Shown: positions 33,143-52,124 of the stretch, in pieces | How positions within the stretch are numbered: the first letter of the stretch is position 1 | Layout of the letters: each line of letters begins with the position of its first letter | Assembly (NCBI GenBank): GCA_963755915.1 | Contig: CAVWLP010000003.1 | Span: 1,120,001 to 1,184,000 of the forward strand | DNA length: 64,000 bases | DNA from: an uncultured Phycisphaerales bacterium | GTDB taxonomy: Bacteria > Planctomycetota > Phycisphaerae > Tepidisphaerales > Tepidisphaeraceae | Direction: 5' to 3' | The notes under the pieces: generated by a model | What the model was told of the DNA's origin: nothing | The model's database searches: none | The model's input: only the letters and a program-made list of their open reading frames with translations | Program-made: the position numbers and the translations under genes

Positions 33143-33449
33143 AGGGCGGCGTCCTCGAAGAGAATTCTGCGGCAACGAGAAGACTGTAGCGAGGCAATTT
33201 GAGGAATAGAATCCGATTTACCCCTTTCGGCAAAATTGTCCAGGCTCTATCCGACAGCCAGCGAACTCCCTCGGGAAAAGATGGTCGCGGTAGTTTAGAG
33301 ATTTGCAAAAGACCAATCTATTGGACGAAAGTATTGGCGATACCAAGAGATAAATTAGCGGCCCAACCCAATACCAAAGTATCATGGAGGATTCGCTGCG
33401 CCCCGCGTAAGTTCGCCCTACGCCTGGCCGCAGCCGGAAGGATCAGGCC

Positions 33450-34097
33450 ATGAAGACCACTCCCCCCATTCCATTTGCCGGTTCACAGCTTGGCGAAGTA
33501 CGCCATGTATGTGCTTTCTTTAACAGTGCGGATGAGCAATATCGTGTCCTGCTTCCGTTTATTAAGGACGGGTTTACCTGTGGACACAAAGCAATCCACG
33601 TCGTCAACCCGGGAAGGCATGAGGATCACCTTCAACGATTGACTGCTTCAGGTATCGACACCAACGCCACTCAGCGGAGCGGACAATTGGAGCTTCGTAC
33701 AAATGTAGATGCTTACCTGCGAGAAGGCCGGTTCGATCAGGACCGAATGCTCGAAGTCTTTGAGCAAGTAGCCAGCCGCAACGGCGAGCGGGGATTCCCC
33801 CTGAGCCGAATTGTCTGCCAGATGGACTGGGCCGCTGATAACCGCTCGCACATCGACAACCTCGTCGAATTCGAATCGCGGGTGAATAACGTATGGAGCC
33901 GCCACGAAGATGCGGTCATTTGCGTTTACGACCTCGCGAAGTTCTCCGGCGATACTGTCATCGATATCATGCGAACGCATCCGATGGTCATCATCGGCGG
34001 CATGCTTCAGTCGAATCCGTTCTACCTGCCTCCCGAAGAATTTCTCCGCGAGATCCGTGAACGGAAATCCTCCGGCTCCGGCTCGGCCACGGCGTAA
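33450..34097 (+). CDS. MEDS (DcmR-like sensory) domain protein
   Basis: HVCAFF, PFIKDG, FDQDRM, CVYDL..F, MRTHP. Confidence 0.85.
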   Translation: MKTTPPIPFAGSQLGEVRHVCAFFNSADEQYRVLLPFIKDGFTCGHKAIHVVNPGRHEDHLQRLTASGIDTNATQRSGQLELRTNVDAYLREGRFDQDRMLEVFEQVASRNGERGFPLSRIVCQMDWAADNRSHIDNLVEFESRVNNVWSRHEDAVICVYDLAKFSGDTVIDIMRTHPMVIIGGMLQSNPFYLPPEEFLREIRERKSSGSGSATA

Positions 34098-34105
34098 AGA
34101 CAAAG

Positions 34106-36598
34106 ATGGACGAGCAGGATAAAAATCCTGGCGAAGAAGTGAAACGCCTGCAGCGCTGCATCAATGACCTGGTCAGCCTGTTGGCCCTTCCCGCGCTTTG
34201 GAGCGGCGGCGACGCATCGCACATCGCTCGCACCCTGATGGCCGTCCTGCAACGCCTCCTCGAACTGGATGTGATTTACGTTTACATCAACGACCCCTCG
34301 AGCGGCGCCGGAGTCGAACTGGCACGCGTCGATCAATCTCCCGCGACGCCGTCACAAGCGCGGGAGATCGGCGCCGAGCTTCATGGCCTGTTGGGCGATG
34401 ATCCGCAGAAATGGCCGTCGCGCATTGAGCGTTCCTTCAGGGACAAAAATATTTCCATCGTGCCAATGCGGCTGGGATTGCAAGGTGAAATCGGCACGAT
34501 CATCGCCGGAACCGAGCGATTAGATTTCCCCAAACAGACTGAAGCGCTTCTTTTGAGGGTCGCGGCGAATCAGGCATTTATGGCGCTGCACCAAGCGCGG
34601 CAGCACAGCGAACAGGCGCGGCTCGCCCACGAACTCGATCACCGGGTCGCCCAGCGAACCGCCGAACTCGCCGCCGCCAACGAACAATTGAAGCTGCAGC
34701 TCGGCCTGCTGGAACTTATCCCCGTGGCGGCGTGGACCATCCGGCCCGATGGAAGGCCCGATTTCATCAACCAGAATTGGGTGGAATATACCGGCCAGTC
34801 TCGCGATTACGTCCTCTCACAACCAGAGGCATGGTTGGCCGCGGTTCATCCTGATGATCGCGAAGTAGCTTCCGCCAGCTATTGGAAGGGGATCCGTACC
34901 GGCAGCGATTTTGCAATGGAAACCCGATTTCGCAGAGCGCACGACGGAGCCTATCGCTGGCATCTCAATCGAGCGATCGCGCTGCGCGATTCAGACGGCA
35001 AGGTCATCAAGTTTGTCGGCACTTCCACCGACATCGAAGATCTCAAACAATCCCAGCAGCAGCTTCGCCACACCGAGGAACGAACCCGAGCAATTATCGA
35101 CACCGCCCTCGATGCGGTCGTCACCATGAATTCTTCTGGAAAAGTCACCAGTTGGAACAAGCAGGCTGAAGTCATATTCGGCTGGACCAGCGACGAAGCC
35201 ATTGGCCTTCGCATGTCGGAATTGATAATTCCGCAATCACTACGGCTGGCGCACGAGCGCGGTATACGCCATTTCCTGGCCACCGGAGAAGGTCCGGTGT
35301 TGCGCCGCCGCATCGAAATCACAGCAATCCGGCGCGGCGGCGTTGAGTTTCCGGTTGAACTGGAAGTCATTCCCATGGAGTTTGCTGGCGACTGGATCTT
35401 CAGCGCCTTCATTCGAGACATCACCGAATCCAAACGCGCCCAGGAAAAGCTCCGCGAAAGCGAGTTTAACCTCCGGCAGATGACGGAAACCATCCCCGAG
35501 ATGCTCTGGAGCGCCACCCCCGACGGCGCAATCGACTACTGCAACACCCGCATGCTCGACTACACCGGTTTTTCCGCCCGCGAGGTCATGGGCAGCGGCT
35601 GGACCAAACTGATTCACCCCGACGACGCTGAATCGGCCGCCCGCACCTGGATCTCCTGCGTGACCAGCGGCGAGGCCTACCGCGTTGAAGTCCGCACCAT
35701 TCATGCCCTCGATCGCACCTATCGATGGTGCGTGATGAACGCACGCCCACTTCTCGACCAGGATGGGCGAATCTTGAAATGGCACGGCACCGTCGTGGAC
35801 ATGCACGATTGGAAACATGCTCAGGAAGCGCTGCGCAATACCCAGGCAGAACTGGCCAATATGGCCCGCGTCATGACCGTGGGCCAGCTCACCGCTTCGA
35901 TCGCGCATGAAGTGAATCAGCCGCTTTCCGGCATCATCACCAACGCCGGCACCTGCCTGCGAATGCTCGATGCCAATCCTCCCAACATCGATGGCGCCCG
36001 CGAAACCGCCCGCCGCACCATTCGCGACGGCAATCGCGCTTCGGAAGTCATCACCCGCTTGCGGGCTCTGTTCACCCGGCGGCAAGCCACCACCGAACCG
36101 GTCGACCTCAACGAAGCGGCCCGGGAGGTCATCGCCCTCCTGTTAAGCAAGCTTCAGAAAGATAATGTCAGTCTGCGATCCGAACTTGCGGACGATCTCC
36201 CCCTCGTCACCGGCGACCGCGTCCAGCTCCAGCAGGTAATCATGAATCTCCTGCAAAACGCTTCCGACGCAATGAACAACGTACGCGATCGATCGCGACA
36301 ATTGCTGATCCAAACCCAGCACCATGATGCAGATCATGTCAGCCTCACCGTTCGGGACAGCGGAATCGGCCTCGATCCACAGACCGTCAACAGGCTTTTC
36401 GACCCGTTTTATACGAGCAAGAACAATGGCATGGGAATCGGCCTCTCCGTCAGCCGATCCATTATCGAAAGCCATGGCGGACGAATTTGGGCAAAGCCCA
36501 ACGATGGTCCAGGCGCCACGTTCTCATTTTCCATTCCGCGCAGTCCCGCCGGCGCAGTCGGCGAGCGTTTAAACGCTCAAGACGTGAGCTCCTTATAG
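34106..36598 (+). CDS. Cytoplasmic multi-PAS sensor histidine kinase
   Basis: Three PAS repeats (HPDD..), IAHEVNQPL, QQVIMNLLQNA, GMGIGL. Confidence 0.93.
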   Translation: MDEQDKNPGEEVKRLQRCINDLVSLLALPALWSGGDASHIARTLMAVLQRLLELDVIYVYINDPSSGAGVELARVDQSPATPSQAREIGAELHGLLGDDPQKWPSRIERSFRDKNISIVPMRLGLQGEIGTIIAGTERLDFPKQTEALLLRVAANQAFMALHQARQHSEQARLAHELDHRVAQRTAELAAANEQLKLQLGLLELIPVAAWTIRPDGRPDFINQNWVEYTGQSRDYVLSQPEAWLAAVHPDDREVASASYWKGIRTGSDFAMETRFRRAHDGAYRWHLNRAIALRDSDGKVIKFVGTSTDIEDLKQSQQQLRHTEERTRAIIDTALDAVVTMNSSGKVTSWNKQAEVIFGWTSDEAIGLRMSELIIPQSLRLAHERGIRHFLATGEGPVLRRRIEITAIRRGGVEFPVELEVIPMEFAGDWIFSAFIRDITESKRAQEKLRESEFNLRQMTETIPEMLWSATPDGAIDYCNTRMLDYTGFSAREVMGSGWTKLIHPDDAESAARTWISCVTSGEAYRVEVRTIHALDRTYRWCVMNARPLLDQDGRILKWHGTVVDMHDWKHAQEALRNTQAELANMARVMTVGQLTASIAHEVNQPLSGIITNAGTCLRMLDANPPNIDGARETARRTIRDGNRASEVITRLRALFTRRQATTEPVDLNEAAREVIALLLSKLQKDNVSLRSELADDLPLVTGDRVQLQQVIMNLLQNASDAMNNVRDRSRQLLIQTQHHDADHVSLTVRDSGIGLDPQTVNRLFDPFYTSKNNGMGIGLSVSRSIIESHGGRIWAKPNDGPGATFSFSIPRSPAGAVGERLNAQDVSSL

Positions 36599-36832
36599 AG
36601 AATTGCCGTCGGAGAATTGGGCCGGCCTCTATCACCCCTCCCCTGGTACTCCTGACCGCCCGACACTTTTTTAAGTTGGGAGACGAATTCAGCGATCGCG
36701 TATCCCCACCCCACACATGTATCCGGCGCGCTCATCGCCAGCGAAACGCCGCCGCATATTGCCTTTTAGGGCTGGACGGTTAGATGGCATGTTGGTTGTC
36801 GGGCTAGCCACCGTCGACTAAACCCGACAACC

Positions 36833-37972
36833 ATGAAACACAATTCTTCTAAAGGTAGCCGCAAGGCCTCCCAAGTTCGAGGGGAGAGAGTCTCGAAGCC
36901 CAATCAGTCGCACGAGGTGATCAAACTCGGCGTGGATACCCACAGCCAGCAATATACCTTCGCACGGATGGTCGATCATCAGGGGATTCAACCGGCCCAA
37001 AAACTCTCGCCGGCCGTCTTCATCGAGTTTCTCAAAAAGCAGCTGACGCTGGCCAAACGCGTGGTGATGGTCTACGAAGCCGGTCCCTACGGCTTCGCGT
37101 TGCACCGCGAAGCCACCGCCCTGGGCGTAGAGTGCCTGGTCTGTGCCCCCGAACGTCTGTCCCGCGGCCGCAAGAGAGTCAACGACAAGATCGACGCCAC
37201 CGAACTGCTCTCGCGTCTGGACCGGCATCTCGCCGGCAACACGACGGCGCTGCGTCTGGTGCGTGTCCCCACGGTGGCCCAGGAGATCCACCGCCGCCTG
37301 GGGCGCGAGCGCAACACCTACCGAAAGGAACGGCAGCGCTGGATCGCCCGTGGACGAAGCCTGCTGCACAGCCTCGGCATCCATCGCCCGGGAAAATGGT
37401 GGGAGCCGCTGGCGTGTGAGCCGCTGCTGAAAAAGCTGGAAGAACTCTACGGCTCAGAACTGATCGAACCGATCCGCAAGGAGCTTGCCCGCGACCTGGA
37501 GATGGTAGAGATGATGGACCAGAAGCGAGATGAACTGACCCGCCAGCTCTGCGCGGAGGCCAAGTCCCGCGAATCGGCCCGGATCAAGGGAATCGGACAC
37601 CTCAGCTATGAGCTGCTGGATCGTGAGATCGTCGACTGGAATCGCTTCCAGAACCGCCGGCAGATCGCCAGCTACACCGGGCTTTGCCCTGGAGAATCCT
37701 CCTCAGGCCAGAGCCGGATGAATCTGTCGATCGACAAACATGGCAACCGCCGACTGCGCACGGTGCTGGTGGAACTGGCGTGGCTGCTGCCCAAGTTCCA
37801 GCCGGAGTATTTTCGTCTGAAGCGCTGGAAGCAGGTCTTCGAGAACCCCGGAGCCAGAGCCATGCGCAAGAAAGCCGCGGTGGCCTTGGCGCGGCAACTG
37901 GCGGTGGACCTGTGGCGGATCAAAACCGGCCGGGTCAAAGCGCAGGATCTGGGCTTGAAACTGGCAGCGTAA
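36833..37972 (+). CDS. IS110-family DEDD transposase/recombinase
   Basis: LGVDTH, YEAGPYG, NDKIDA, IKGIG, ASYTGLCP..SSG, KHGN..LR, KKAAVALARQL. Confidence 0.92.
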   Translation: MKHNSSKGSRKASQVRGERVSKPNQSHEVIKLGVDTHSQQYTFARMVDHQGIQPAQKLSPAVFIEFLKKQLTLAKRVVMVYEAGPYGFALHREATALGVECLVCAPERLSRGRKRVNDKIDATELLSRLDRHLAGNTTALRLVRVPTVAQEIHRRLGRERNTYRKERQRWIARGRSLLHSLGIHRPGKWWEPLACEPLLKKLEELYGSELIEPIRKELARDLEMVEMMDQKRDELTRQLCAEAKSRESARIKGIGHLSYELLDREIVDWNRFQNRRQIASYTGLCPGESSSGQSRMNLSIDKHGNRRLRTVLVELAWLLPKFQPEYFRLKRWKQVFENPGARAMRKKAAVALARQLAVDLWRIKTGRVKAQDLGLKLAA

Positions 37973-38298
37973 AAAGCCGGCCAAGGTTGTCCCCGAACTT
38001 CTGGAGCCTGGATGGACGACGGATAAAGAGCTTGGAATAAAAGTGAAAGAGACGAGCCACGGTGTAACGCGCCCGTTTTCCCCTATGAGCGCCCTTGAGC
38101 GTTCGGCGGTTAGATTGGGTCAGCGTGAACCGCCTGCAACGGACGTATTAGACCATGGTGTACTGGCAAACCGCCAGGTACGGATAGCAGGAAGAGCGTT
38201 GCCGCAATGATGGCAACAGCCCATGCAGAGCGGACACTGACAGGCCGAGCAACAGCTTAAAAAGACAAAAGAATAAAGGCGGCGAATGCGGCCCACAC
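37973..38298 (+). ncRNA. Candidate bridge/seek RNA region of the IS110 element
   Basis: Long non-coding end containing ttcccct (38078-38084) and cggttag (38107-38113), matching the two target flanks on opposite strands. Confidence 0.5.
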
Positions 38299-38498
38299 TT
38301 GACAACCAACATAGCAGGGGAAGGGAAAGAGGGTGGAGGGGGTGCGGGGGAGGCGGGAGAAAAACCTTGGGGCCTTATGGGTTGTCTCCCGCCTCCCCTG
38401 CATTGCTTTTGCATTTGTCTTCAAAAGAGCCGGCCGCTTACTCCTCGAACTCAAAAAATGTGTCGGGCGGTCAGGTACTCCGGGGGAGGGTTGGGGGC

Positions 38499-38528
38499 TC
38501 TACTGCTCCACTTTCTACTGCTCCACTT
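38499..38528. repeat. Tandem 15-bp direct repeat
   Basis: tctactgctccactt x2. Confidence 0.7.
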
Positions 38529-38740
38529 TCTCGCGTAGCGCTGGGCATTGGCGCGACCAAAGTAATCACTTGGCGGCTCGAACCAATACCAAAGTACTAT
38601 GGAGCTTCGCGAAAGTGTCGCATATGCTGCTTGAAATGGGTGTACTGCATAACCACCGTGTCCAGCACAACGGATTTTTTCTCGCAGTCCCGGCACTAAG
38701 ACTTGTCTCGCCAAAACAGCGGAGATCGTGAGGAATCGCA

Positions 38741-39127
38741 ATGGATAAGCGAGCACTGGTTTCCGTTGTGGATGACGATGAATCCGTTCGCGAGTCGCTC
38801 CCCGACCTGCTCGGAGAACTCGGCTTTGCCGTGAAGGCGTTTAATTCCGGCGAAGCGTTTCTCGCTTCTGAATCCTTGCAGCAGACCGAATGCCTCATCC
38901 TCGACATCGCCATGCCGGGGATGAGTGGCTTTGATGTGCAGCGGGAATTGAAAGCCCGCCGCCAGCAGATCCCAATCGTATTTATCACCGCCCACAAGGA
39001 TGCAACCGCCCGGCCGGAGGTGCTCGCAGACCACGCCGTCGCCTGCCTCTTGAAACCGTTCAGCGACACCGCCCTGCTCCAGGCGATTCGAACCGCCTTG
39101 GGATCGCCCAAAATAAATGGCACGTAA
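38741..39127 (+). CDS. Single-domain response regulator
   Basis: VSVVDDD, LDIAMPG, FITAH, LKPF. Confidence 0.92.
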   Translation: MDKRALVSVVDDDESVRESLPDLLGELGFAVKAFNSGEAFLASESLQQTECLILDIAMPGMSGFDVQRELKARRQQIPIVFITAHKDATARPEVLADHAVACLLKPFSDTALLQAIRTALGSPKINGT

Positions 39128-39173
39128 ATTAAACCGCGCGTAAACTAAACGGCACGAAAATTGAGGTGAGTCC

Positions 39174-39809
39174 ATGTCAGATAACATGCCGATCGTATTT
39201 GTCGTTGACGATGATATCTCGGTGCGCGAATCGCTGGAATCGCTCATCCGCTGCGAAGGCTGGCAGCCGCAAACCTTCCTCTCCGCGGATGAATTCCTCG
39301 CCCACCCTCGCGCCGCGACGGCTAGCTGCCTCGTGCTCGACGTGACCCTGCCGGGCCTGAACGGCCTCGATTTACAGCAGCGCATCGCCGCCGACCGAAG
39401 CGATATGCCCATCATCTTTATCTCCGGTTTTGGCGATGTCCCCAAAACGGTCAGAGCCATGAAGGCTGGAGCGATTGAATTCCTCACCAAGCCGTTCAAC
39501 AACGACGTCCTGCTCAGCGCCATCCGTCAGGCAATCAAGCGCAGCCAATCAACGATCGTCGCTCAAAATGAGCTGCGACAGCTCCAGGATCGCCATGCAT
39601 CGCTGACCACCCGCGAGCGCGAGGTCATGCACCTGGTCGTCTCCGGCCTGCTCAACAAACAGGTTGGCGCCGAACTCGGCATCAGCGAAATCACCGTGAA
39701 GGCCCACCGCGGCAAAGTCATGGAAAAAATGCAGGCCGAATCCCTCGCCGATCTGGTAAAAATGGCCGAAAAACTCCGCACCGCGACGGCGCCCAGGTCG
39801 ACCCAATAA
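39174..39809 (+). CDS. FixJ/NodW-family response regulator (REC + LuxR HTH)
   Basis: [43 protein letters not shown]. Confidence 0.94.
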
Positions 39810-40940: not shown

Positions 40941-41180
40941 GTGGAGCACCCGGTACTGGATTACGAGCCTAAGTCGATCAATGAAAAAATCCCGCTGTGG
41001 CGATGGGGATTCATTTCGATTCTGTTTGGGTTCCTAGCGGGTTTCGCTGGCTCCGATGGCAACGACCAGTGGATGATTGCCTTATTCTTCGTCGCGTTCG
41101 CGCTTTCGCTTGTCGGAGTCGGGCTGATTTTGGTGAGCATTTTTTGGGCTATTTTCACCGGCCGCGAAGCAACAATGTGA
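40941..41180 (+). CDS. Small membrane protein
   Basis: AAGGAG ribosome-binding site, VLDYEP start, two TM segments. Confidence 0.6.
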   Translation: MEHPVLDYEPKSINEKIPLWRWGFISILFGFLAGFAGSDGNDQWMIALFFVAFALSLVGVGLILVSIFWAIFTGREATM

Positions 41181-41218
41181 CGTTGCGGCAAGTATACACT
41201 TCCGAAAAGCAATGAGAT

Positions 41219-41443
41219 ATGTTTGGGAAGATAATCAGCCTCGGCGTTCTTTGGTTCCTCTGGATTGGAACTTGGTGGGCGGTAGCCTATCAATATAAGA
41301 CGGGCACCGCAGTAGGCGCACTTCGATTTCAGCGCGCAGGACACCCAAGGCTATTTTGGATCTACATCTCCATTCAGATAGCCGTTTTGGGTGGACTGGC
41401 GTTCTTTTGTGTCCTTTGGACTATCGGAGTGACCCACAAATGA
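41219..41443 (+). CDS. Small membrane protein
   Basis: Two hydrophobic segments, R..HP.LFW motif. Confidence 0.55.
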   Translation: MFGKIISLGVLWFLWIGTWWAVAYQYKTGTAVGALRFQRAGHPRLFWIYISIQIAVLGGLAFFCVLWTIGVTHK

Positions 41444-41472
41444 GACGGTGCGCTGACCCCACGGGCTATGGA

Positions 41473-41712
41473 AACTAAAGGCGTCACGATCCATAAACCA
41501 CAAAATACCGCATAGGTGGCCGACGGACTCCACGCAAGCCCCGTCCGAACCGCAAATTCCCGACAAACTGAACACTTTTCTGAGCGCCAAAACCGGATAC
41601 AGCCGGCAATACGCCCAACCGATTACCCCATCAATACATACCGCGGCGACAAAAGCTAGCATTCACTAATCATTTTTCAAAAGTGTCAGATTCTGTCAGA
41701 TTCTGTTCAGCC
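41473..41712. repeat. ~240-bp repeat, inverted relative to 50057-50095 + 51619-51833
   Basis: For example 41630-41672 reverse-complements to tgattagtgaatgctagcttttgtcg.cgcggtatgtattg, seen from 51633; similarity continues along the whole length. Confidence 0.85.
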
Positions 41713-41728: not shown

Positions 41729-43225
41729 CTATCCCCGAGACTTAATGCGCAGCCCGCGCGGAACCACGCACCTCTCAAGTAATCCAAACCCCCCTTGAAC
41801 CAGTAGCGCCAGGATCGCGGCCGGCACCGCGCCCATAAGCAGCAGCCGGTTATCCGCCAGGCGTATTCCGGTCAGAATCGGTTGCCCATACCCGCCGGCG
41901 CCGATCAATGCCCCGATCGTCGCCGTCCCCACGTTGATGACCGCCGCGGTCTTGATCCCGGCAAGAATCGACGGCGACGCCAACGGCAGTTCAATTTTTC
42001 GCAGCCGCGCGCTCGGCGACAGCCCCAGCACGATCGCGCTTTCGCGCAGCCCCGGCGCGATTCCCGACAAGCCCGCATGCGTGTTCCGCACGATCGGCAA
42101 AAGCCCGTACAGAAACAGTGCGACAATGGCCGGCAATGTCCCAATCCCAAACAGCGGAATCATGAATACCAGCAGCGCCAGCGACGGGATCGTATAAATG
42201 ACCGCGACCACGGCCAGAATAACCTGGCCAGGCCTGGGAAATAGGAACGCAAGAACCCCAAGCGGAATCGCGACGATGATCGACGCCGTCAGCGACACCC
42301 CGACGAGCTGCAGGTGCTCGCACGTGCGCAGGAGCAGTTGCATGGTCATGCTTTGAACCCGCGGGTCGCTCTTCAACTGGAACCGGGACAGAAGGAATTG
42401 AGATGCAACCTCCGCCTCAGGCACCTTCTGCAGCTTGCTCAAAGCATTCATCCTGATCATTTGCGACGCGTCGATCGCGCCTTCAAGTCGCTCCACCGCT
42501 TTGACGACCGCCGGTGCGCGATTGAGCAGGTCCAGCCGATAGAGATAGACCGCGTCGTATGCCGTAAACACATGGCGGTCATCATCCAGCACGCGGAAGT
42601 GATAAAATTCAATCTCCGCATCGGTTGAGTACAGGTCGATGACGTCGATCGATCCTGACGCAGCGGCGCGATACGCCAGGTCGTGATCGAGCCCCGTCAC
42701 ATTCGTTTGCGGCAGGGCATAGGTCGTTTTCAGAATCGGCCACCCATCCTTGCGATTAAGAAACTCGTTGCTGAACCCGAAACGAAGTGAGGGGTGCTGG
42801 CGTAGATCGCTGATCGAGCGAAGATTCAATTGACCAGCCAGCGCCTCAGGAACACCCAGCGCGTACGTGTCATTAAACCCAAGCGGGCGAGTCATTCCGA
42901 TTCCGCGCTGACGCAGCGCCGATTCGATCGCCGCGGTATCCGCGGCCGTGCCGGGAATCAGCTCCTGAATGATCGTCCCGGTGTATTCCGGATAGATGTC
43001 GATATCCCCCGCCCGAAGCGCTTCCCACAGCACCCGCGTGCCGCCAAGCTGGCTGCGATGAATCGTTGGAACCCCCGCATTGTTGCCAAGCTGCGTGGCT
43101 AGCTCGCCAAGGATGACGCTCTCAGTAAAAACCTTTGACCCCACCCGCACGGTTTCAGCCGCAAACGCCGATGTTGCCATCAGGATCGTCGCGCAAAACA
43201 TGAACACTGTCTGGGAAGCCCTCAC
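41729..43225 (-). CDS. Osmoprotectant/betaine-type ABC transporter, fused substrate-binding + permease
   Basis: Signal peptide, VGSKVFTES.ILGE, DIYPEYTGT, YSTD; C-terminal TIPSLAL, LLPIVRNT, IGAGGYG. Confidence 0.9.
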   Translation of the reverse strand: MRASQTVFMFCATILMATSAFAAETVRVGSKVFTESVILGELATQLGNNAGVPTIHRSQLGGTRVLWEALRAGDIDIYPEYTGTIIQELIPGTAADTAAIESALRQRGIGMTRPLGFNDTYALGVPEALAGQLNLRSISDLRQHPSLRFGFSNEFLNRKDGWPILKTTYALPQTNVTGLDHDLAYRAAASGSIDVIDLYSTDAEIEFYHFRVLDDDRHVFTAYDAVYLYRLDLLNRAPAVVKAVERLEGAIDASQMIRMNALSKLQKVPEAEVASQFLLSRFQLKSDPRVQSMTMQLLLRTCEHLQLVGVSLTASIIVAIPLGVLAFLFPRPGQVILAVVAVIYTIPSLALLVFMIPLFGIGTLPAIVALFLYGLLPIVRNTHAGLSGIAPGLRESAIVLGLSPSARLRKIELPLASPSILAGIKTAAVINVGTATIGALIGAGGYGQPILTGIRLADNRLLLMGAVPAAILALLVQGGFGLLERCVVPRGLRIKSRG

Positions 43226-43959
43226 GGCTGCACCGCGGTCAATTGTTGCGCCCGCACAAACTGACGAACAAAATCATCAGCCGGGTTGTCCTGCAATTCG
43301 CTCATCGAGCCGGTTTGGACGACTCGACCATTTCGCAGAAGCACAAATCGGTCGGAAAAAAAGGCCGCCTCGGCCAAATCATGGGTGATTAAGAGGACGG
43401 TCTTGTGAAGCCGCGAAAATATCTTCGCCAGATCCTGCTGAAGTTCCGCCCGAACGATTGGGTCCAATGCCCCCAGCGGCTCGTCGAGCAACAAAACATC
43501 CGCGTCGAGCATAAGGGCTCGAACGAGTGCAACACGCTGTCGTTCGCCGCCGGACATTTCACCGGGATACCGTGCGAGAACCAGCGGCGACAATCGGACG
43601 AGTTCAAGCAACTCGTCAATGCGCGCTGCAATCTCGCTCTTGGACCAGCCAAGGTGCGCCGCCATCAACGACACATTGGAACGCCCGGTCAGGTGTGGAA
43701 AGAGGCCGCCGTCCTGAATGACGTAGCCGATGCGTTGCCTCAGTGCGCGGATTGACCCGCGGCTGATGTCCTCATCGCGGAAATAGACGACTCCCGCATC
43801 CGGTTTTACCAGCCCGGTGAGCAGTCCACACAGGGTCGATTTACCGCTGCCACTGGGGCCAATAAGCGCTGTGGTATTGCCGGCCGTTATTGTGAGGCTA
43901 ACACCATCCAGCACTTGTTCGCCGCCATACGACTTGGAAACTGAATCGATTCGGAACAT
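43222..43959 (-). CDS. ABC transporter ATP-binding protein (OpuBA/ProV-like)
   Basis: GPSGSGKST, IGYVIQDGGLFPH, MSGGERQR, LLDEP, ITHD. Confidence 0.93.
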   Translation of the reverse strand: MFRIDSVSKSYGGEQVLDGVSLTITAGNTTALIGPSGSGKSTLCGLLTGLVKPDAGVVYFRDEDISRGSIRALRQRIGYVIQDGGLFPHLTGRSNVSLMAAHLGWSKSEIAARIDELLELVRLSPLVLARYPGEMSGGERQRVALVRALMLDADVLLLDEPLGALDPIVRAELQQDLAKIFSRLHKTVLLITHDLAEAAFFSDRFVLLRNGRVVQTGSMSELQDNPADDFVRQFVRAQQLTAVQP

Positions 43960-44037
43960 GCGTGGGAGATTAGGCAAGGTTGCAAGGTTGCTAGATAGAG
44001 CTTACCACAAAAATAAGGCACCCCGGCAGCGCCGAAA

Positions 44038-44081
44038 TTGGACTTTAGTATCGAATCGTCCCTTTCAATACTTAGGTCCAA
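44038..44081. promoter_or_regulatory. Paired palindromic boxes in the ABC/egtB divergent intergenic region
   Basis: ttggactttagtat (44038-44051) and atacttaggtccaa (44068-44081); same motif at 28167, 33321, 33371 and 38586. Confidence 0.55.
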
Positions 44082-44137
44082 TAGCCTTCTCTCCTCGGAT
44101 GCCTAACCTCCTATCAACTCACATCGAAGGAGGTCCC

Positions 44138-45426
44138 ATGCGATCGCAACCGGTGAAGGCAGCAACATCGAGGCTGAATGCGAAATATCAAACCGTGCGA
44201 TCGGCGACCCGCTCTATTGCCGACAGTCTTTCCGCTGAAGACCAGATGATCCAGTCATGCCCGGAAGCCAGTCCGGTCAAATGGCATCAGGCGCATACAA
44301 CGTGGTTCTTTGAGACGTTCGTGCTGCGCGAGTTCCTCAAGGATTACGAACCCTTCCGCGATAAGTTCCGCTGGCTCTTCAACAGCTATTACAACTCGCT
44401 CGGCGATGAGATTGTCGAGAAAAAACTTCGCGCTTCGTTTTCCCGCCCTTCACTCGAGGAGGTCGTCGCGTTCCGGGCACACGTTGACAAGGCGATGGAA
44501 AGACTTCTCGCAAACCCGGTTGATGACGAACCGGCGCGGAGAATCGTTTTGGGTCTGAACCACGAGCAGCAGCACCAGGAGCTTGCCCTGACTGATATCA
44601 AGCATGCGTTCTTCTCGAATCCGCTCCATCCTTCGTTCGCCGCCGATCCCCTGTTGGGAGAAACGGATCTTCCCGCGGCTAAGCTCCAATGGCACTCCTT
44701 CAAGGGAGGGCTGATCGAAATTGGTTATCCACTTCAGACTGCGGATCCGCTGGACTTTTGCTTCGATAACGAAACTCCCCGGCACAAGGTGTATCTGCAA
44801 CCGTTTCAGATCGCCAACCGCCAAGTCACCTGCGGCGAATATCTGGAATTCATGGCGGATGGCGCATACGGACGCCCCGAATTCTGGCTCTCGGCCGGCT
44901 GGGAAACCGTGAAGACCAAAGGGTGGCAGGCGCCCCTCTATTGGCAACGCGATGCAAGTGACAAGACCGGCTGGCGCGTCTTCACGCTACGGGGCTGGAC
45001 GGGGCTCTCCACGCTGATTGATCTGCCGGTGTGTCACATCAGCTTGTTCGAAGCTGATGCATTCGCACGCTGGCGGGGCTGCCGACTTCCAATGGAAGCG
45101 GAATGGGAATGCGTCGCGAGCGAATCGCCGCCAAACGGAAATTTATTGGACACCGGAAGGCTGCACCCCGCAAAGGCGCGCGGCACGGGCATCCAGCAAC
45201 TCTTCGGCGACTGCTGGGAGTGGACGGCCAGCGCTTACACCGGTTATCCGGGATATAAACCTCTCCCCGGTGCTCTGGCGAATACAACGGCAAATTTATG
45301 TCCGGCCAGATGGTTCTCCGCGGAGGATCCTGCGTCACACCCGCGGATCACATCCGCGCTGCGTATCGAAACTTCTTTCAACCCGAAACCCGGTGGCAAT
45401 TCTCCGGCCTGCGTTTGGCAAAATAG
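44138..45426 (+). CDS. egtB: Ergothioneine sulfoxide synthase; 1-nt deletion near 45278
   Basis: [30 protein letters not shown] iron motif, [24 protein letters not shown] restored by adding one G. Confidence 0.92.
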
Positions 45427-45441
45427 GAAGGATTCACTCAC

Positions 45442-46440
45442 ATGGCTGCATACGCTCTCGGTCCCGACTTAAAACGCCCCGCCGCGCTCAGTGCGCGCGA
45501 CATGCTGATCCGCGAAGTCCATCGCGGCATGCGCGGGCGGCCCCGATCTCTTACCCCGTGGATGTTCTATGACGCCCGCGGCTCCCGCATCTTTGAATGT
45601 ATCACCCAGCTCCAGGAGTATTACCCGACACGCATGGAGCGCAACATCCTGACCAGCTTTTCCCACGACATCATTGCCGCCGCCTGCTGCAACCGATCAA
45701 AGGCCATGCGTCTCGTGGAGCTGGGCGCGGGCACTGCTTCGAAGACCACCCTCCTCCTCAATGCCGCCGCGAGATTACAAAATGAAGTGCTCTACGCACC
45801 AATCGATGTCTCGCCCGATGCCCTTGAGGTTGCGCGTGAAAAGATCGCAGCCTCCTCCCCGGAAGTGTGCGTCTCGCCGATTGTCGCCAACTATGTGACG
45901 GATCCGCCCCAGCTCGAATCCTACGAGGGGGTAACCCTGGGGTTATACATCGGTTCAAGCATCGGCAATTTCGAGGCCGAAGAGCGGCTGACCATCCTTC
46001 GCAATCTGAGAAGTCAGCTTCAAGCCGGCGATGCGCTCCTGCTCGGTGTCGACATGGTCAAAGACGAACCCACTCTGGTGGCTGCCTATGACGACAGCGA
46101 CGGGGTCACGGCAGAATTCAACCTGAACATCCTAAGTCGTCTCAATCGGGAGCTTGGCGCTGATTTTATTCCCGCGAACTTCCGTCATCGCATTGTCTGG
46201 AGTTCCGAGCGATCGCGCATCGAGATGCACCTGGAAAGCACCTGCGGCCAATGGGTACGCATTCCCGCCGCCGAGGTCGAGGTTTATTTCAAGAAACACG
46301 AAACCATCCATACCGAGAACAGTTACAAGTTCACCAGGGAGACCATCCAGGCTCTTCTCCGCGACGCCGGCTTTGAGGTTGAACATACCTGGAAAGACAG
46401 GCTCGGGTGGTACTCGGTTACGCTCGCGCGCACCCACTAA
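45442..46440 (+). CDS. egtD: L-histidine N-alpha-methyltransferase
   Basis: FYDARGS..F..I..L.EYYPTR, ELGAG...KT, GSSIGN, AYDDSDGVTAEFNLN, IHTENSYKF. Confidence 0.95.
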   Translation: MAAYALGPDLKRPAALSARDMLIREVHRGMRGRPRSLTPWMFYDARGSRIFECITQLQEYYPTRMERNILTSFSHDIIAAACCNRSKAMRLVELGAGTASKTTLLLNAAARLQNEVLYAPIDVSPDALEVAREKIAASSPEVCVSPIVANYVTDPPQLESYEGVTLGLYIGSSIGNFEAEERLTILRNLRSQLQAGDALLLGVDMVKDEPTLVAAYDDSDGVTAEFNLNILSRLNRELGADFIPANFRHRIVWSSERSRIEMHLESTCGQWVRIPAAEVEVYFKKHETIHTENSYKFTRETIQALLRDAGFEVEHTWKDRLGWYSVTLARTH

Positions 46441-46471
46441 AGAACTTTAGGAGAGCACCAGAGGAGAACAC

Positions 46472-46855
46472 ATGGAAACTCAGAACAACCGCATTGCCCT
46501 GGACCAGCACTGGGCGGCATCGGCATCGGGAGACCTGGAAACCGAACACCAGATCTACGACGACAACGTCCTCTGCGAATATCCCCAGTCGGGGGAAAAA
46601 ATCCGGGGCCGCAAAAACATCCAGGCTTTGCGCGGACACCATCCCGCAAAACCAAGCGGCTTCCAGATCCGCCGCATCGTCGGCATTAACGATCTGTGGG
46701 TCACCGAGTACGTCATCAATTACACAACCTCGGTTGTCCAGACCGTCAGCATCATGGAGTTCCAAAACGGCAAGGTGATCCATGAAACCCAATACTTTGC
46801 CGAACCCTTCCAAGCGCCCGCATGGCGTTCGCAATGGGTGGAGCAGGGCAAATAG
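46472..46855 (+). CDS. SnoaL/NTF2-like protein
   Basis: YPQSGEKIRGR.NI, VSIMEF.NGKV.HETQYF. Confidence 0.8.
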   Translation: METQNNRIALDQHWAASASGDLETEHQIYDDNVLCEYPQSGEKIRGRKNIQALRGHHPAKPSGFQIRRIVGINDLWVTEYVINYTTSVVQTVSIMEFQNGKVIHETQYFAEPFQAPAWRSQWVEQGK

Positions 46856-46870
46856 CGCAGGTGATCGCTT

Positions 46871-48252
46871 ATGGAACACTTTGACGCCATCGTCATCGGC
46901 TCGGGACAGGCGGGAACACCGCTCTCCATCGCCCTCGGCGAGGCCGGACGAAAAACCGCTCTCATCGAGAGCCAGCATTACGGCGGCACCTGCATCAATG
47001 TGGGTTGCACGCCCACAAAAACGATGGTCGCCAGCGCCCGCGTCGCATACCTCGCCCGGCGTGCCGCCGACTTTGGCATTCGATGCGGCCCGGTCAGCGT
47101 TGATTTGGCGCAAATCCGCCGGCGCAAGCAGGCCATTGTGGACGATTTCCGCGCGGGGTGCAGCGCCGCCTGAAAAATGCCCGGAACCTGGAGCTCATCG
47201 ACGGCGAAGGGCGCTTCACCGCTTCCAAGGTCGTCGAGGTAACGCTCACTGCCGGCGGCAATCGAACAATGACCGCGGACAACATTTTCATCAACACCGG
47301 CGATCGATCCGCACAACCCCGCATCGCCGGCCTCGATTCGGTGAAAACTCTCGACTCCACCTCCATCATGGAGCTGGAAGTGCTGCCGGAGCATCTGCTG
47401 GTTTTAGGGGGCGGCGATGTCGGCCTGGAATTCGGCCAGATGTTTCGCCGCTTCGGCAGTGCTGTCACCATCGTGGCCCGCCGCAACCAGCTCCTGGGTC
47501 GGGAAGACCCCGACGTTGCCGCCGAAGTTTCCAAGGTGCTGCAGACGGATGGCATTGAAATTCTGCTCGAAACCGAAGTGCTCGGCGTGCATTCCAGCGC
47601 TTCCGGCGTCGAATTACAGTTTCGCGGACCTGCTGGCGAGCGCACCGTTGCCGGGTCCCACCTCCTGGTCGCCATGGGACGCGTGCCGAACAGCGAGCAC
47701 CTGAACCTCCCCGCCACCGGCGTAAACGTCGACGCCCACGGATTCATTCCGGTAGACGATCGGCTTCAGACGAACATTCCCGGTGTGTACGCTTTGGGAG
47801 ACGTCAAAGGCGGCCCCGCCTTCACCCACATCTCCTACGACGATTATCGCATCATCCGCAACAACCTGCTTCGGGAGGGAAAGGCGTCGATAAAGGATCG
47901 GCTGGTTCCCTACACCGTCTTTATCGACCCACAGCTTGGCCGGATCGGTCTGACCGAGCAGGAGGCGCGGGCACAGGGCCGCGCGATCCGCGTCGCCAAG
48001 ATTCCGATGACCTGGGTTGCGCGGGCCATAGAAACCGCCGAGACCCGCGGGTTCATCAAGGCCGTCGTCGATGCCAACACCCGGCAGATCCTCGGCGCCG
48101 CCGTCCTGGGCATCGAAGGGGGTGAAATCATGTCGATGCTTGAAATCGCCATGATGGGCAACCTTCCCTATACCGCTCTGGAAGACGGCGTCTTCGCACA
48201 CCCCGCCCTCGCGGAGGGATTGAACACGCTCTTCATGAACATGGAAAAATGA
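46871..48252 (+). CDS. Pyridine nucleotide-disulfide oxidoreductase (MerA/RclA-like, no C-terminal Cys pair); frameshift near 47157
   Basis: [46 protein letters not shown]. Confidence 0.88.
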
Positions 48253-50023
48253 ATTCGCAGATGCCAAGGCTGTTGTCCGTCAACGTGGGTCGGCCCCGCG
48301 AAATCGCCTGGCGCGAAAAGACGGTTTGCACGTCTGTCTGGAAGGCGCCGGTGGTCGGACGGCGACTGGTGCGCCGGCTCAATATCGACGGCGACGCCCA
48401 GGGAGATCTGCACGGCCACGGCGGCGAACACCGCGCCGTCCTGGTTTACCAAATCGATTCCTACCACTACTGGCAACGCGAACTGAATCGAAACGATTTC
48501 ACCTTCGGACAATTCGGCGAAAACTTCACCGTCGATGGCCTGCCCGACAACGAAGTCTCCATCGGCGACCGCTTCCGCATCGGCGCAGCGGAGTTTGAAG
48601 TCACCCAGCCCCGCGTCACCTGCTACCGCGTTGGCATACGAATGAACGAGCCCCGGATGGCGGCTTTGCTGGTCGGCCATCATCGGCCGGGATTCTATCT
48701 CCGCGTCCTCAAGGAGGGAGATGTAGGGGCCGGCGACGAAATCGTGAAAATCGCCGACGGCCCCGAACGCCTTTCGGTCACCGCGTGCGATGCACTTCTC
48801 TATCTTCCCGGAGCAACCAGGGAAGACCTCGAGCGGGCTTTGCGCATCCCCGCCCTGAGCCCCGGATGGAAGTCTTCCTTTGAGGCGATTCTCCGGCAAA
48901 TGGCGCAGCCGGGCTCGAACACGGGGAATGCCGGATTAACTTCGTCCGAGCAGAGGGTCACAGCCGCCCCGGGGTTCCGGCCACTGAAGGTGGCGAGAAT
49001 CGATCGGGAGTGCAAGAGCATCGTCTCCATTGTGCTGGGGCCGGTAGACAGTCCCCCTCTGACCGTGCCATTGCCCGGGCAGTTCGTGGTGATACGGCTT
49101 CCCCGGGAAGCTGATGGGCCGCAGGTTTCGCGCAGCTATTCGCTTTCCGGTCCGCCGGATGCGGATCGTTATCGCCTCACCATTAAGCAGGAGCCGAACG
49201 GAGTTGTCGGCACGTTCGTGAGCACGCAGCTTCGCACCGGCGATCTCCTCGATGTCAGCGCACCCGCGGGGCGTTCATCCTCCAGCCGGGCGATCTCCCG
49301 GTGGTGCTGCTGAGCGCCGGCGTGGGTGTTACTCCGGTAATGGCCATGCTCCACGCGCTGGCAGCACAGGCGTCGCCGCGCCCGGTCTGGTGGATACAAG
49401 GAGCGCGCAGCGGTCTGGATCATCCCTTTGCGCAGGAAGTACGTGACCTCCTGATCAAGCTGCCTCACGCGCGGCGGTGTATTGCATATAGCCGGCCCGA
49501 AGCAACGGATCGGCCAGGCATCGACTTCGATAGCACCGGCCGGCTGAGCGTCGCAGTCCTCGAAAAACTGGGCGTGCCCCGCGAAGCGGATTTTTATCTC
49601 TGCGGCCCCGGCCCCTTCATGGACGAATTCACCACTGGCCTCAAGTCCTGGGGCGTGGCCCCAAATTCCATCCATACGGAGATCTTCGGTTCGGCCGGCG
49701 CCATTACGCCGGGTATTAACGATGCGCCGCGACGGATGCCGCACGCGCCTGTGGGATCGCCCGGCAATGGTCCAAAGATCTCCTTCGCACGTGCCGGTCT
49801 GACCGTCTCCTGGGAATCGAGATTTCAGAGCCTGCTGGAGTTGGCGGAGGCGTGCGATGTTCCGGTGCGGTTCGCCTGCCGGAGCGGGGTTTGCCATACC
49901 TGCGAATCGGGGTTGATTTCGGGGTCGGTGAAGTATGATCCCGATCCGCTGGAGCCGCCGGCGGCTGGGAACCTGTTGATCTGCTGCTCGCGACCCGAAG
50001 GGGACGTGGTAATCGACATCTAG
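48249..50023 (+). CDS. MOSC + 3-alpha + FAD/NAD reductase + 2Fe-2S ferredoxin fusion; frameshift near 49264
   Basis: HGGEHRA, FGENF, QPRVTCY (MOSC); RSYSL, AGVGVTP, CGP (reductase); CRSGVCHTC...CC (ferredoxin). Confidence 0.9.
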
Positions 50024-50095
50024 GTCTAGTAAGTCGAGGGGGGCACACGGATTAGGCGAAACTGAACAGAACTGAACAAAACTGAACACTTTTTG

Positions 50096-51618
50096 CAATA
50101 GTGTCCGGAACGCAGGCTCACAAATAACACGATCTTGCGCTTGCGCGAAGCAGCGTTTTGTGGTTCACTGCCGCCACGTGCACGCGGACCTTTGCCCAGC
50201 TTCTGGATTGCCCGCCAAGCCGGGACGAAAGCCGCGGCCGGCGGTGCGGGGGGAGGATTTGTTCGGCGGCAAGTACGTCGGTATTTTGCAGGATCATCTG
50301 GCCCGCCTGCGGGCGGCGCATCCCCACCCCAATCGCACGCTTTTTTATGACGATGTGACCCTTGCCTATCTGCTGGCGTTTTTCACGCCGGCGATTCGCA
50401 GCCTGCGGACGATGGAGGATTTCAGCCAGACCGAGCAGATGCAGGAGCAGCTTTCGGTCGATCGCCTGCCGCGTTCCACGCTTTCCGATGCCAACGCCCT
50501 GTTCGATCCGACGCTGCTGGAGCCGATCATCGAGGAGTTGCGGGCGCGGCTGCCGCACCTGCGTCACGGCGATCCGAAGCTGGCGGAGTTGACCGAGCGG
50601 GTACGGGTGGTGGATGGGTCGCTGTTCACCGTTGCCGCCGACGTGGCCTGGGCGCTGCATCAAAGTCGACCCAACGGAAAGCCCATGGACACGATTCGCC
50701 TGAATCTTCAATGGGCGGCGGGCGTGGGGGTTCCCGAGGGAGTGACGATCAGCGGCGCGGGATGCTCCGAGGCGCAGGCGCTGATGCAGTCCCTGGAGCC
50801 GGGACAGATTTACGTCATGGACCGCGGCTACGTCTGTTTCGAGCTGCTGGAGCGGATCGTACATGCCTGCAGCGATTTTGTGCTCCGGCTCAAGTCAAAC
50901 AACTATTTCATTCCCATCGAAAACAATGACTTGACCCCCAAGTCCCTGCCGCTGAGCGATGAAGACCGCGCTGCCGGCATTCTCAGCGACCGGATCGGAT
51001 ACCTGGGCTCAGAAGGGCCACGCTTTGCTCCTCCGGCGGGAAAATGGCTTCGGGAAGTGACGATCTTCGACCCGGACAAACCCGACAGGCCCCTGCGGCT
51101 GCTGACCAATCTTCTTAACATTCCCGCCCATGTCATCGGTCTGCTCTACCGCTGGCGATGGAAGATCGAGCTGTTTTTCCGCTGGCTGAAAGTGCACGCC
51201 CACTTCCGCCATCTCACCAGCCACAGCAAAAACGGCGTCACCACCGGGTTCTACATCGCGGTCATCGGGGTGCTGTTGATCTATCTGCACACGCAGCGTC
51301 CGGTGAGCAAATATGCCTACGCGATGCTGAGCCTGGTCGCCGCGGGAGGGGCCACGTTGCAAGAGATTATTCCCATCCTGCAGCGCCGAGAACGGGAATG
51401 CGAGCTGCAGCGTCAGCGTGTGGCACGGAAGAAGGCTGAAAAAATCGTCAAGTAAGTCACCGGGGGTTTTTGTTGTCCGGCCGCCGGTGAACGCCGCGGC
51501 ATGCGCTGCAGGAGCAGCGCTGAACCTTCCACGCCGTTGCCCATCGAGGCAACGCAGCCTTTCGAGTGAAAACCCGAAAAATCCCAGCTCTAAGACGCGG
51601 AAGTCCCGGACAATATTG
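50096..51618 (+). mobile_element. IS4-family insertion sequence
   Basis: IRs caatagtgtccgg / ccggacaatattg; 9-bp target duplication cactttttg at 50087-50095 and 51619-51627. Confidence 0.92.
50160..51455 (+). CDS. IS4-family DDE transposase
   Basis: RSTLSDAN, VVDGS, MDRGY, Y..RWKIELFFRWLK (YREK motif). Confidence 0.93.
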   Translation: MVHCRHVHADLCPASGLPAKPGRKPRPAVRGEDLFGGKYVGILQDHLARLRAAHPHPNRTLFYDDVTLAYLLAFFTPAIRSLRTMEDFSQTEQMQEQLSVDRLPRSTLSDANALFDPTLLEPIIEELRARLPHLRHGDPKLAELTERVRVVDGSLFTVAADVAWALHQSRPNGKPMDTIRLNLQWAAGVGVPEGVTISGAGCSEAQALMQSLEPGQIYVMDRGYVCFELLERIVHACSDFVLRLKSNNYFIPIENNDLTPKSLPLSDEDRAAGILSDRIGYLGSEGPRFAPPAGKWLREVTIFDPDKPDRPLRLLTNLLNIPAHVIGLLYRWRWKIELFFRWLKVHAHFRHLTSHSKNGVTTGFYIAVIGVLLIYLHTQRPVSKYAYAMLSLVAAGGATLQEIIPILQRRERECELQRQRVARKKAEKIVK

Positions 51619-52124
51619 CACTTTTTGGATTTTGATTAGTGAATGCTAGCTTTTGTCGCTGCGGTATGTATTGGTGGGGCAAATGGTTGTGCGCATTTCG
51701 GACTATAGCCGGTTTTGTCGCTCGAAAAAGTGTTCAGTTCTCAGGGAATTGGGGTTTAGGGCGGGGTTTCGTGTGGAATTCGTTGGCTACTTATGCGGTC
51801 TTTTGTGGTTTAAGGTTCCTGACACCTTTAGTTCCCCCAAATCCCAAGTTCTTTTAGTCGAGTTTCTAATCGCAGAAGGGTTGTCACACCCGGACCTTAC
51901 ACTAGGTGCAACCACCTGCATGTGAAGATTCACGCCTGCAGCCGGTAGATTTTTGTAGCTATCCATCTCTCATCACTCTAGGGTGATGATGTACGGCGAG
52001 GGCATTCAATTCAACCGTTGTATTGAATCAACAGTCAAAACCGGACTCCCCCACCTCTACGCGGTTTCACGTGGCGTTTGTCGATCGGATGAAGACCCAT
52101 TTTTTCCCAAAAAGGAAGTGTACT

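Follow-up and report, generated by a model that had tools for sequence, protein, structure and literature searches.

In the two-gene ergothioneine pathway of Chloracidobacterium thermophilum, egtB adjoins egtD and EgtA and EgtC are absent, and type II EgtB enzymes take cysteine directly as sulfur donor. RclA of E. coli and Har, flavoprotein disulfide reductases of group 1, reduce hypothiocyanous acid (HOSCN) and Cu(II). We analysed a locus in which genes resembling both systems stand together: positions 44138-50023 of a 64,000-nucleotide stretch of contig CAVWLP010000003.1 (assembly GCA_963755915.1, positions 1,120,001 to 1,184,000) from an uncultured Phycisphaerales bacterium, a soil planctomycete that kinship with L008/G461 places in the family Tepidisphaeraceae. 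This whole stretch is called the window; G and L labels denote other genomes and loci, G000 the window's own genome and X1-X4 sequencing runs. As in C. thermophilum, egtB adjoins egtD and EgtA and EgtC are absent; unlike that pathway, three redox genes occupy the same operon and an EgtUV-like importer is encoded divergently upstream. On the evidence below we give about an even chance to the reading that this is an ergothioneine locus with facultative oxidant-defence additions, none of them required for biosynthesis. The five co-oriented genes are as follows.

44138-45426, forward strand: egtB, type II (cysteine-using) sulfoxide synthase, by TIGR03440 and PDB matches; one base short near 45276
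45442-46440, forward strand: egtD, histidine N-alpha-methyltransferase, by TIGR03438 and Pfam Methyltransf_33
46472-46855, forward strand: NTF2/SnoaL_2-like protein of the PDB 3EN8 family, 127 residues, by Pfam SnoaL_2
46871-48252, forward strand: FADOR, a group-1 flavoprotein disulfide reductase of the RclA/Har type, by Pyr_redox domains; one base short near 47154
48249-50023, forward strand: MOSC-FNR-2Fe2S gene, predicted self-contained molybdenum cofactor (Moco) reductase, by Pfam domains; one base short near 49262

An earlier note on this DNA, made from its letters alone, had described five genes in one orientation with gaps of 15, 31 and 15 bp and a final ATGA overlap. The recomputed coordinates agree exactly (egtB to egtD 15 bp, egtD to SnoaL 31 bp, SnoaL to flavoprotein 15 bp, flavoprotein and MOSC gene overlapping by ATGA), and Pfam and NCBIfam profile matches support the family that the note had given to each gene. 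A strong ribosome-binding site, GAAGGAGG, precedes the egtB ATG.

The first two genes encode the ergothioneine core. EgtB matches TIGR03440 with 425.2 bits over its N-terminal piece and 87.9 bits over its C-terminal piece (cut-off 360), and both the DinB_2 and the FGE-sulfatase domain of Pfam are found. It scores 348 bits over 364 residues against the type II structures 8qf6, 6qki and 6o6l (Chloracidobacterium-type) and 86 bits against the mycobacterial type I structure 4x8b; on the SenA model it reaches 276 bits, below the cut-off of 420. Its FNSYY aligns with the FNSYY of the type II structures, so that the Tyr-Tyr pair that replaces Tyr377 is kept, as are the His motifs; the accessible part of PMC10903977 describes a catalytic role for Tyr93-Tyr94 in type II EgtB. 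Alignment, by which the earlier note had meant the EgtB type to be decided, thus places the enzyme in type II, predicted to use cysteine. EgtD scores 331.5 bits on TIGR03438 (cut-off 290.9) and 340.8 bits on Methyltransf_33.

Because EgtB is of type II, the absence of EgtA and EgtC is expected. The earlier note had seen no egtA, egtC or egtE in the window, and profile searches extend this to the genome: EgtA (TIGR03444) and EgtC (TIGR03442) have no match anywhere in its 6.6 Mb (81% complete), and the best match to EgtE (TIGR04343) reaches 84 bits where 400 are required, which does not exceed what pathway-free control genomes give. The EgtA, EgtC and EgtE equivalogs that mark the five-gene mycobacterial egtABCDE cluster are therefore missing here. 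Lack of EgtE is usual for organisms with the two-gene egtBD set, and generic class-V aminotransferase-like matches occur in this genome and in all 14 control genomes. Going by established pathway knowledge, EgtD would make hercynine, and type II EgtB would convert hercynine, free cysteine and O2 to hercynyl-cysteine sulfoxide, leaving EgtA and EgtC unneeded; an unspecific pyridoxal phosphate (PLP) C-S lyase encoded elsewhere would then release ergothioneine sulfenic acid, which cellular reductants would bring to ergothioneine.

The earlier note had also raised the possibility that the downstream enzymes complete this pathway. In that case the three proteins would replace the EgtE step, by C-S cleavage or sulfoxide reduction, and would be needed for ergothioneine; the genome's missing EgtE equivalog and the operon shared with egtBD fit such a role. 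Yet Pfam and NCBIfam find no PLP C-S lyase or PLP-lyase fold in any of the three, and the class-V aminotransferase-like matches are available in the genome. Reduction of the sulfoxide to the thioether would, moreover, remove the substrate that EgtE prefers (PMC4493562, in its accessible part). Distribution points the same way. In a phylum sample of 401 genomes, EgtD occurs in 92 (91 besides the window's own), and the SnoaL family is found in 0 of the 400 other genomes, whereas EgtD is found in 91 of those. We examined the neighbours of egtD at the 80 best-scoring of 94 places outside the window's genome, leaving out the 14 lowest-scoring; SnoaL was found at none, MOSC at none and the flavoprotein at one (L138). 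Clusters within the same genus also lack SnoaL and MOSC. A completion step that egtBD requires is thus quite improbable, and this part of the earlier proposal is not supported.

As written, the window carries one frame change each in egtB, the flavoprotein gene and the MOSC gene, three within 5.9 kb, and an insertion sequence (IS) of the IS4 family present in 18 copies lies directly downstream. Both features would suit a decaying cluster in which the frameshifts are real and the operon consists of pseudogenes beside an IS element. Compared with every intact homologue in alignment, however, one base is missing within a G/C run at each of the three sites. Contigs of run X1 insert one base behind 45276, 47154 and 49262 (in the flavoprotein gene, behind 47154, a G) and hold no other indel across the 5886 bases; their depth is 3.6-5.9, and the indel evidence comes from this one run, possibly the sample of origin, runs X2-X4 covering the stretch in part with no listed piece spanning the three frameshift sites. 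In the same assembly (6.6 Mb, 3 contigs, marker completeness 81%), rpoB and rpoC are broken into six pieces each (G000 C2:4866817-4874979). G401, of the same genus, reads through at the window's three junctions and has its breaks at other sites. The genes are also unbroken in metagenome contigs and in L008 and L249, which are short-read assemblies, and the MOSC gene is a single open reading frame (ORF) of 588 and 596 residues in L042 and L021, respectively. Because of the X1 insertions, the broken rpoB and rpoC and the intact junctions of G401, the three frameshifts are assembly errors and all five genes are to be read as intact. Decay, to which we give next to no credence, is rejected in view of these insertions, the rpoB/rpoC fragmentation and the intact homologues. 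One-base indels are frequent in G000, and few-contig genomes of the same genus are alike in this (59-83% complete). Apparent pseudogenes in the window need to be checked against reads.

The fourth gene encodes a flavoprotein of ~460 residues with Pyr_redox_2, Pyr_redox and Pyr_redox_dim domains; L008 has an intact orthologue of 460 residues at 10400-11782. Its translation has a CxxxxC motif near residues 42-47 and HPxxxE (HPALAE) near the C terminus and lacks a C-terminal Cys pair, which bears out the earlier statement that CxxxxC is present and the C-terminal Cys pair of MerA absent. NCBIfam matches all stay below their cut-offs: the top two models, NF004992 at ~522 bits against 629 and RclA (NF040477) at 355.6 + 60.4 against 740, as well as NF041853 at 314.1 + 56.9 over two pieces against 650 and MerA (TIGR02053) at 275.4 + 64.9 against 454, so that the protein does not qualify as a mercuric reductase. 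The top structures are 6kgy/6kod (262 bits), 8uub (239) and 8ajk/8ajj (220), matched over the C-terminal 364 residues. With RclA, Har and MerA-type HOSCN reductases the protein shares the group-1 fold, the CxxxxC, the C-terminal His-Glu and the lack of the MerA Cys pair; unlike RclA, it falls short of the equivalog score and stands among ergothioneine biosynthesis genes rather than rclABC genes. Two paralogues of 42-43% identity lie away from egt genes in the same genome (C2:391882-392946 and C3:22565-23623). Given these paralogues, the homologues at L138 and L185, in the 45% identity range, may not be orthologues.

The MOSC protein combines MOSC (117.3 bits), YiiM_3-alpha (38.1 bits), FAD_binding_6, NAD_binding_1 and Fer2 domains of Pfam. 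It matches the YiiM structure 5yhh at 122 bits in an alignment that keeps the QPRxxC cysteine, and scores 93.8 bits on the 6-hydroxyaminopurine reductase equivalog NF008577, below the cut-off of 294; the YcbX beta-barrel N-domain was not detected in it. Its MOSC and YiiM 3-alpha domains and conserved Cys align it with the Moco reductases YiiM, YcbX and mARC. Unlike YiiM, it carries its own FNR-like FAD/NAD module and a fused 2Fe-2S ferredoxin, ~591 residues overall. Judged by their sequences, the closest solved relatives of the flavoprotein (RclA type) and of the MOSC domain (YiiM) are oxidant-defence enzymes, in favour of an oxidant-defence role for the additions.

Between egtD and the flavoprotein gene, the 127-residue SnoaL protein scores 29.2 bits on SnoaL_2 (cut-off 27), and its alignment profile matches PDB 3en8, an 'uncharacterized NTF-2 like protein', at 218 bits. 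It has more than 8000 homologues, the best 120 at 76-95% identity, and keeps 62-83% identity over at least six phyla (Planctomycetota, Acidobacteriota, Proteobacteria, Bacteroidota, Chloroflexota and Verrucomicrobiota; loci L007-L086); an alignment of 25 sequences has 55 invariant positions, including one Cys and an RxHHP motif. ESM Atlas gave no hint of its function, the hits being confined to 'SnoaL-like / NTF2 family' clusters. At 80 SnoaL loci across bacteria, egtD lies within 10 kb in 3, and the neighbours include aldo/keto reductases (11), short-chain dehydrogenases/reductases (SDR; 10), flavoproteins (6), quinone-oxidoreductase-type alcohol dehydrogenases (ADH; 6), LysR regulators (6), major facilitator superfamily transporters (6) and MOSC-FNR-Fer2 proteins (5). 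A recurrent SnoaL neighbour of 328 residues (L027) matched no NCBIfam family. The accessible parts of PMC9732360 and PMC12341727 report a SnoaL2-family gene of unknown role in streptococcal ergothioneine-uptake operons (spd_1644; BFP66_RS07260). The window resembles these egtU/etUV operons in placing a small SnoaL-type protein beside an EgtUV-type transporter and differs from them in its host, as the streptococci import ergothioneine and do not make it.

Close relatives separate the flavoprotein from its two neighbours. The flavoprotein gene lies 3' of egtD in all six related genomes (G401, G407, G411, G452, G461 = L008, and L007), through inversions and gene gain and loss. G401 carries the same five genes as the window, with SnoaL, flavoprotein and MOSC genes after egtD; in L008 SnoaL and then the flavoprotein follow egtD; in G407, G411 and G452 the flavoprotein alone does, and in G407 and G411 SnoaL is precisely missing from a cluster that is syntenic in other respects. 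In L007, egtD is followed by SnoaL, the flavoprotein, other dehydrogenases and short MOSC remnants. Among 16 informative metagenome contigs with an EgtD at least 64% identical, the flavoprotein follows egtD in 14, SnoaL stands between them in 6 and MOSC comes after in 2. SnoaL and MOSC are thus facultative, gained and lost between relatives even of the same genus, and they are recent acquisitions in this lineage. Co-occurrence with egtBD, which the earlier note had offered as a check of its proposal, accordingly gave a divided answer: SnoaL and MOSC are absent from the 80 egtD loci and vary within the genus, and the flavoprotein is kept in relatives. The planctomycete relative L007 also shows a different setting (L007:6724-17695), with egtD-SnoaL-flavoprotein amid a Zn-ADH, an SDR, a quinone-oxidoreductase-type ADH, a glyoxalase, an aldehyde dehydrogenase and two aldo/keto reductases; its remnants are short MOSC and Fer2 pieces, and egtB was not detected in 20 kb.

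More distant lineages show the same families beside egt genes in scattered arrangements. The flavoprotein lies 3' of a 38%-identical EgtD in L234, divergent from egtB in L193 and upstream of egtD in L185 (just 46% identity); SnoaL lies 3' of egtD in L190 and convergent with it in L201; MOSC-FNR-Fer2 lies upstream of egtB in L203. The verrucomicrobial locus L042 (10001-18662) carries egtB, egtD, an ATP-binding cassette (ABC) ATPase, a permease and MOSC/FNR/Fer2 on one strand, followed by a peroxiredoxin gene (AhpC/TSA) and, in convergent orientation, SnoaL; the window's gene set recurs here in a different order. In a second phylum, a search made blind to egt genes found flavoprotein homologues (44-62% identity) in 14 of 281 genomes; none of the 14 has egtD within ~9.5 kb, and the surroundings of 13 are free of egt and sen genes.

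These data underlie our preferred reading, in which the three downstream proteins would perform NAD(P)H-driven detoxification of small oxidised or electrophilic compounds, outside the biosynthetic core. The flavoprotein would act on substrates typical of its family (HOSCN, species derived from hypochlorous acid (HOCl), Cu(II)) and the MOSC enzyme on N-hydroxylated or N-oxide compounds, as is typical of its own. The genes would have joined an egtBD operon stepwise, the flavoprotein first and retained, SnoaL and MOSC later and variable, to the effect that antioxidant and oxidant-removing enzymes are expressed jointly. We prefer it because the flavoprotein is kept while SnoaL and MOSC vary with no general link to egtD, and because SnoaL homologues stand mostly among general redox and detoxification genes and the second-phylum flavoproteins are unlinked to egtD. 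Since the closest characterised relatives of the flavoprotein are oxidant-defence reductases, co-expression with oxidant removal is the conservative reading. In keeping with it, the cluster is accessory, being found in 4 of the genus's 13 genomes, inverted relative to its flank in G407 and G411 and placed beside an 18-copy IS4 element.

Several observations weigh against this preferred reading. Tightly coupled translation is suggested by the small intergenic distances and the ATGA overlap. In a family sample of 40 genera searched without regard to egt genes, both flavoprotein orthologues found (77-79% identity, 2 of 40 genera) adjoin egtD, and the fidelity of the flavoprotein to egtD in 14 of 16 contigs and six genomes is not easily explained by co-regulation alone. 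At L254:8101-14525 (G854:C26, acidobacterial-type), senC and egtB flank a FADOR homologue of 59-61% identity in a co-oriented SelD/SenC-FADOR-EgtB-SenA-SenB cluster of the selenoneine type (EgtB 483 bits, SenA 487.6 against 420, SenB 369.9 against 300), with no EgtD within ~10 kb of this combined ergothioneine/selenoneine-type cluster. The window resembles the selenoneine cluster senABC through this embedded homologue and differs from it in having no SenA, SenB or SenC; such an arrangement occurs in 1 of 14 SenA-positive genomes (the unpublished G682 among them). In a tree of 28 flavoprotein homologues (MAFFT and FastTree, midpoint root, topology indicative only as branch support was not considered), the window's clade groups with L252, L254, L253 and L234, so that three of five lineages are egt- or sen-linked; the neighbours of the unlinked L252 and L253 are efflux components, a GcvT-like gene and unknowns, with nothing related to ergothioneine. 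Chance is an unlikely cause of the flavoprotein's recurrence beside thio- and seleno-histidine genes. Finally, among 20 SnoaL-bearing genomes of varied phyla, 17 have an EgtD match (16 of 19 if the unpublished G464 is set aside), which exceeds the cut-off in 14, and three have none. Within the Dyella-type order, EgtD likewise occurs in six of six SnoaL-positive genomes, compared with 85 of all 151, the six apparently forming one clade. This co-occurrence is weak evidence, confounded by taxonomy, with soil taxa rich in EgtD, and we do not use it as support.

Several of these points would suit a role in ergothioneine recycling or finishing, a plausible alternative to which we give less credence. 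Here the flavoprotein, with NAD(P)H, FAD and its CxxxxC dithiol, would return ergothioneine sulfenic acid or disulfide to ergothioneine, and other oxygenated ergothioneine derivatives would be substrates of the MOSC-FNR-2Fe2S enzyme and the NTF2-like protein. The C-S lyase yields the sulfenic acid, which is also what forms first when ergothioneine is oxidised, and its reduction would parallel that of HOSCN, itself a small sulfenic acid, by the flavoprotein's relatives. To our knowledge, no enzyme has been assigned to the bacterial reduction of lyase-released ergothioneine sulfenic acid or to the regeneration of oxidised ergothioneine. In the accessible part of PMC4493562, EgtE releases free ergothioneine sulfenic acid, which in the absence of a reductant disproportionates to sulfinic acid and hercynine. 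The position of the flavoprotein after egtD in contigs and related genomes and beside egt genes in L234 and L193, its place within senC-FADOR-egtB-senA-senB and the egt or sen linkage of three of the five lineages in the nearest subclade all fit such a role, as do MOSC-FNR-Fer2 beside egtBD in L042 and L203, SnoaL after egtD in L190 and L201 and the SnoaL2-family gene of the streptococcal uptake operons. On the other hand, most egtBD loci have none of the three genes, 13 of the 14 second-phylum flavoproteins have no egt or sen neighbour, and the L254 flavoprotein adjoins SelD/SenC and so might serve to provide selenide instead of working on the product made from histidine. Neither the taxonomically confounded SnoaL-EgtD co-occurrence nor the three SnoaL-positive genomes with no EgtD match helps the recycling role, and thiols can reduce the sulfenic acid non-enzymatically, with dithiothreitol (DTT) used in vitro and cellular thiols proposed (PMC4493562, same part).

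A wider version strikes us as doubtful: the flavoprotein would be a dedicated reductase for oxidised 2-thio- and 2-seleno-histidine betaines (the sulfenic acid or disulfide of ergothioneine and the selenenic acid or diselenide of selenoneine), finishing the C-S lyase step and regenerating used ergothioneine at the expense of NAD(P)H, with the widespread NTF2-like and MOSC-FNR-2Fe2S proteins as further ergothioneine-repair enzymes. The earlier note's proposal of a role on oxidised ergothioneine therefore survives in part. It is plausible for the flavoprotein, given its egtD and sen linkage and sulfenic-acid chemistry; for SnoaL and MOSC, the linkage does not hold across other genomes, an outcome that the note had listed as refuting its proposal.

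The egtBD core and each of the protein families are already known. What appears to be new is the architecture, an EgtUV-like importer with type II egtBD, an NTF2-like protein, an RclA-like flavoprotein and a MOSC-FNR-2Fe2S enzyme, together with the recurrent association of the flavoprotein with egt and sen genes; neither was found in the literature, supplements and subscription journals lying outside the search. In the partial texts covered, no bacterial ergothioneine or selenoneine reductase was found named, 'ergothioneine disulfide' with 'reductase' gave no bacterial enzyme, ergothioneine together with RclA gave nothing, and ergothioneine with MOSC gave only chance word matches among those listed. 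This absence of a named enzyme fits the recycling role, and this locus, together with its relatives, supplies a specific candidate reductase that is simple to assay. If the flavoprotein is active on these compounds, a recycling enzyme would be added to ergothioneine biology, and engineered producers might reach higher yields, with less loss to sulfinic acid and hercynine. If it acts on HOSCN and Cu(II) only, this would be an ordinary type II egtBD operon with acquired general oxidant-defence genes.

Divergent from egtB, the window encodes a predicted EgtUV-like ABC importer of the betaine class.

43222-43977, reverse strand: EgtV-like ABC ATPase, by Pfam ABC_tran; divergent from egtB
41729-43225, reverse strand: EgtU-like subunit with an N-terminal OpuAC-type solute-binding domain fused to a permease, by Pfam OpuAC/BPD_transp_1

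The ATPase scores 125 bits on ABC_tran, with the proV subfamily as its top NCBIfam match, and the EgtU-like subunit scores 191 bits on OpuAC and also matches BPD_transp_1. The best solved relatives of its binding domain are S. pneumoniae EgtUC (SpEgtUC) structures 9egi and 7txl (138-142 bits), above ProX/OpuC proteins. In a hand-mapped alignment to 7txl, the SpEgtUC contacts kept are the aromatic cage Y341/Y419/Y443 and K242, T275, T296, E375, R379 and D381; the published specificity positions are changed (G244 to F, F293 to Y), and N339 is D. Residue roles are from the accessible part of PMC9732360, where G244F binds ~100-fold weaker. Because the contacts are mostly kept but both specificity determinants are changed, the ligand could be ergothioneine, hercynine or another betaine. 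Unlike EgtUV of S. pneumoniae and H. pylori, this importer has the reversed domain order, with the binding domain N-terminal, and unlike S. pneumoniae its host makes ergothioneine itself. The same transporter type stands beside egtBD at 15 of the 80 egtD loci and in L042, L170 and L171, and ATPase and permease are syntenic in L008, L167, L168, L169 and L042. Producers that pair egtBD with an EgtUV-like importer merit attention as to why they import and which ligand.

The downstream boundary of the cluster is formed by a mobile element.

50160-51455, forward strand: IS4-family transposase (NF033592, 182.6 bits)

The whole element (window 50060-51835) has 18 copies in the genome at 98-100% identity. 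In G000 one of them borders the MOSC gene, and in G401 the cluster has a copy at its other end, next to the transporter. A composite transposon was considered and rejected, as IS4 lies on one flank only in both genomes and is spread genome-wide; mobilisation of the cluster is unsupported. In G407 and G411 (L168, L169), the segment from transporter to flavoprotein is inverted relative to a conserved flank (window 33369-39798). Between this flank and the cluster, window positions 40.0-41.7 kb (an OmdA/YdeI-like gene and two small ORFs) are unmatched in L168 and L169; the small ORFs, at 40961-41344 and 41351-41662, matched no NCBIfam family.

Scans of 43800-50300 gave no promoter-like site, where shuffled sequence would give 2.1, and 7 terminator-like sites, where it would give 6.5, and no dedicated regulator was found inside the cluster. 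A FixJ/NarL-type response regulator lies in the conserved flank at 39174-39809 on the forward strand, 2 kb from the transporter, scoring 202 bits on NF006900, below its cut-off of 255.

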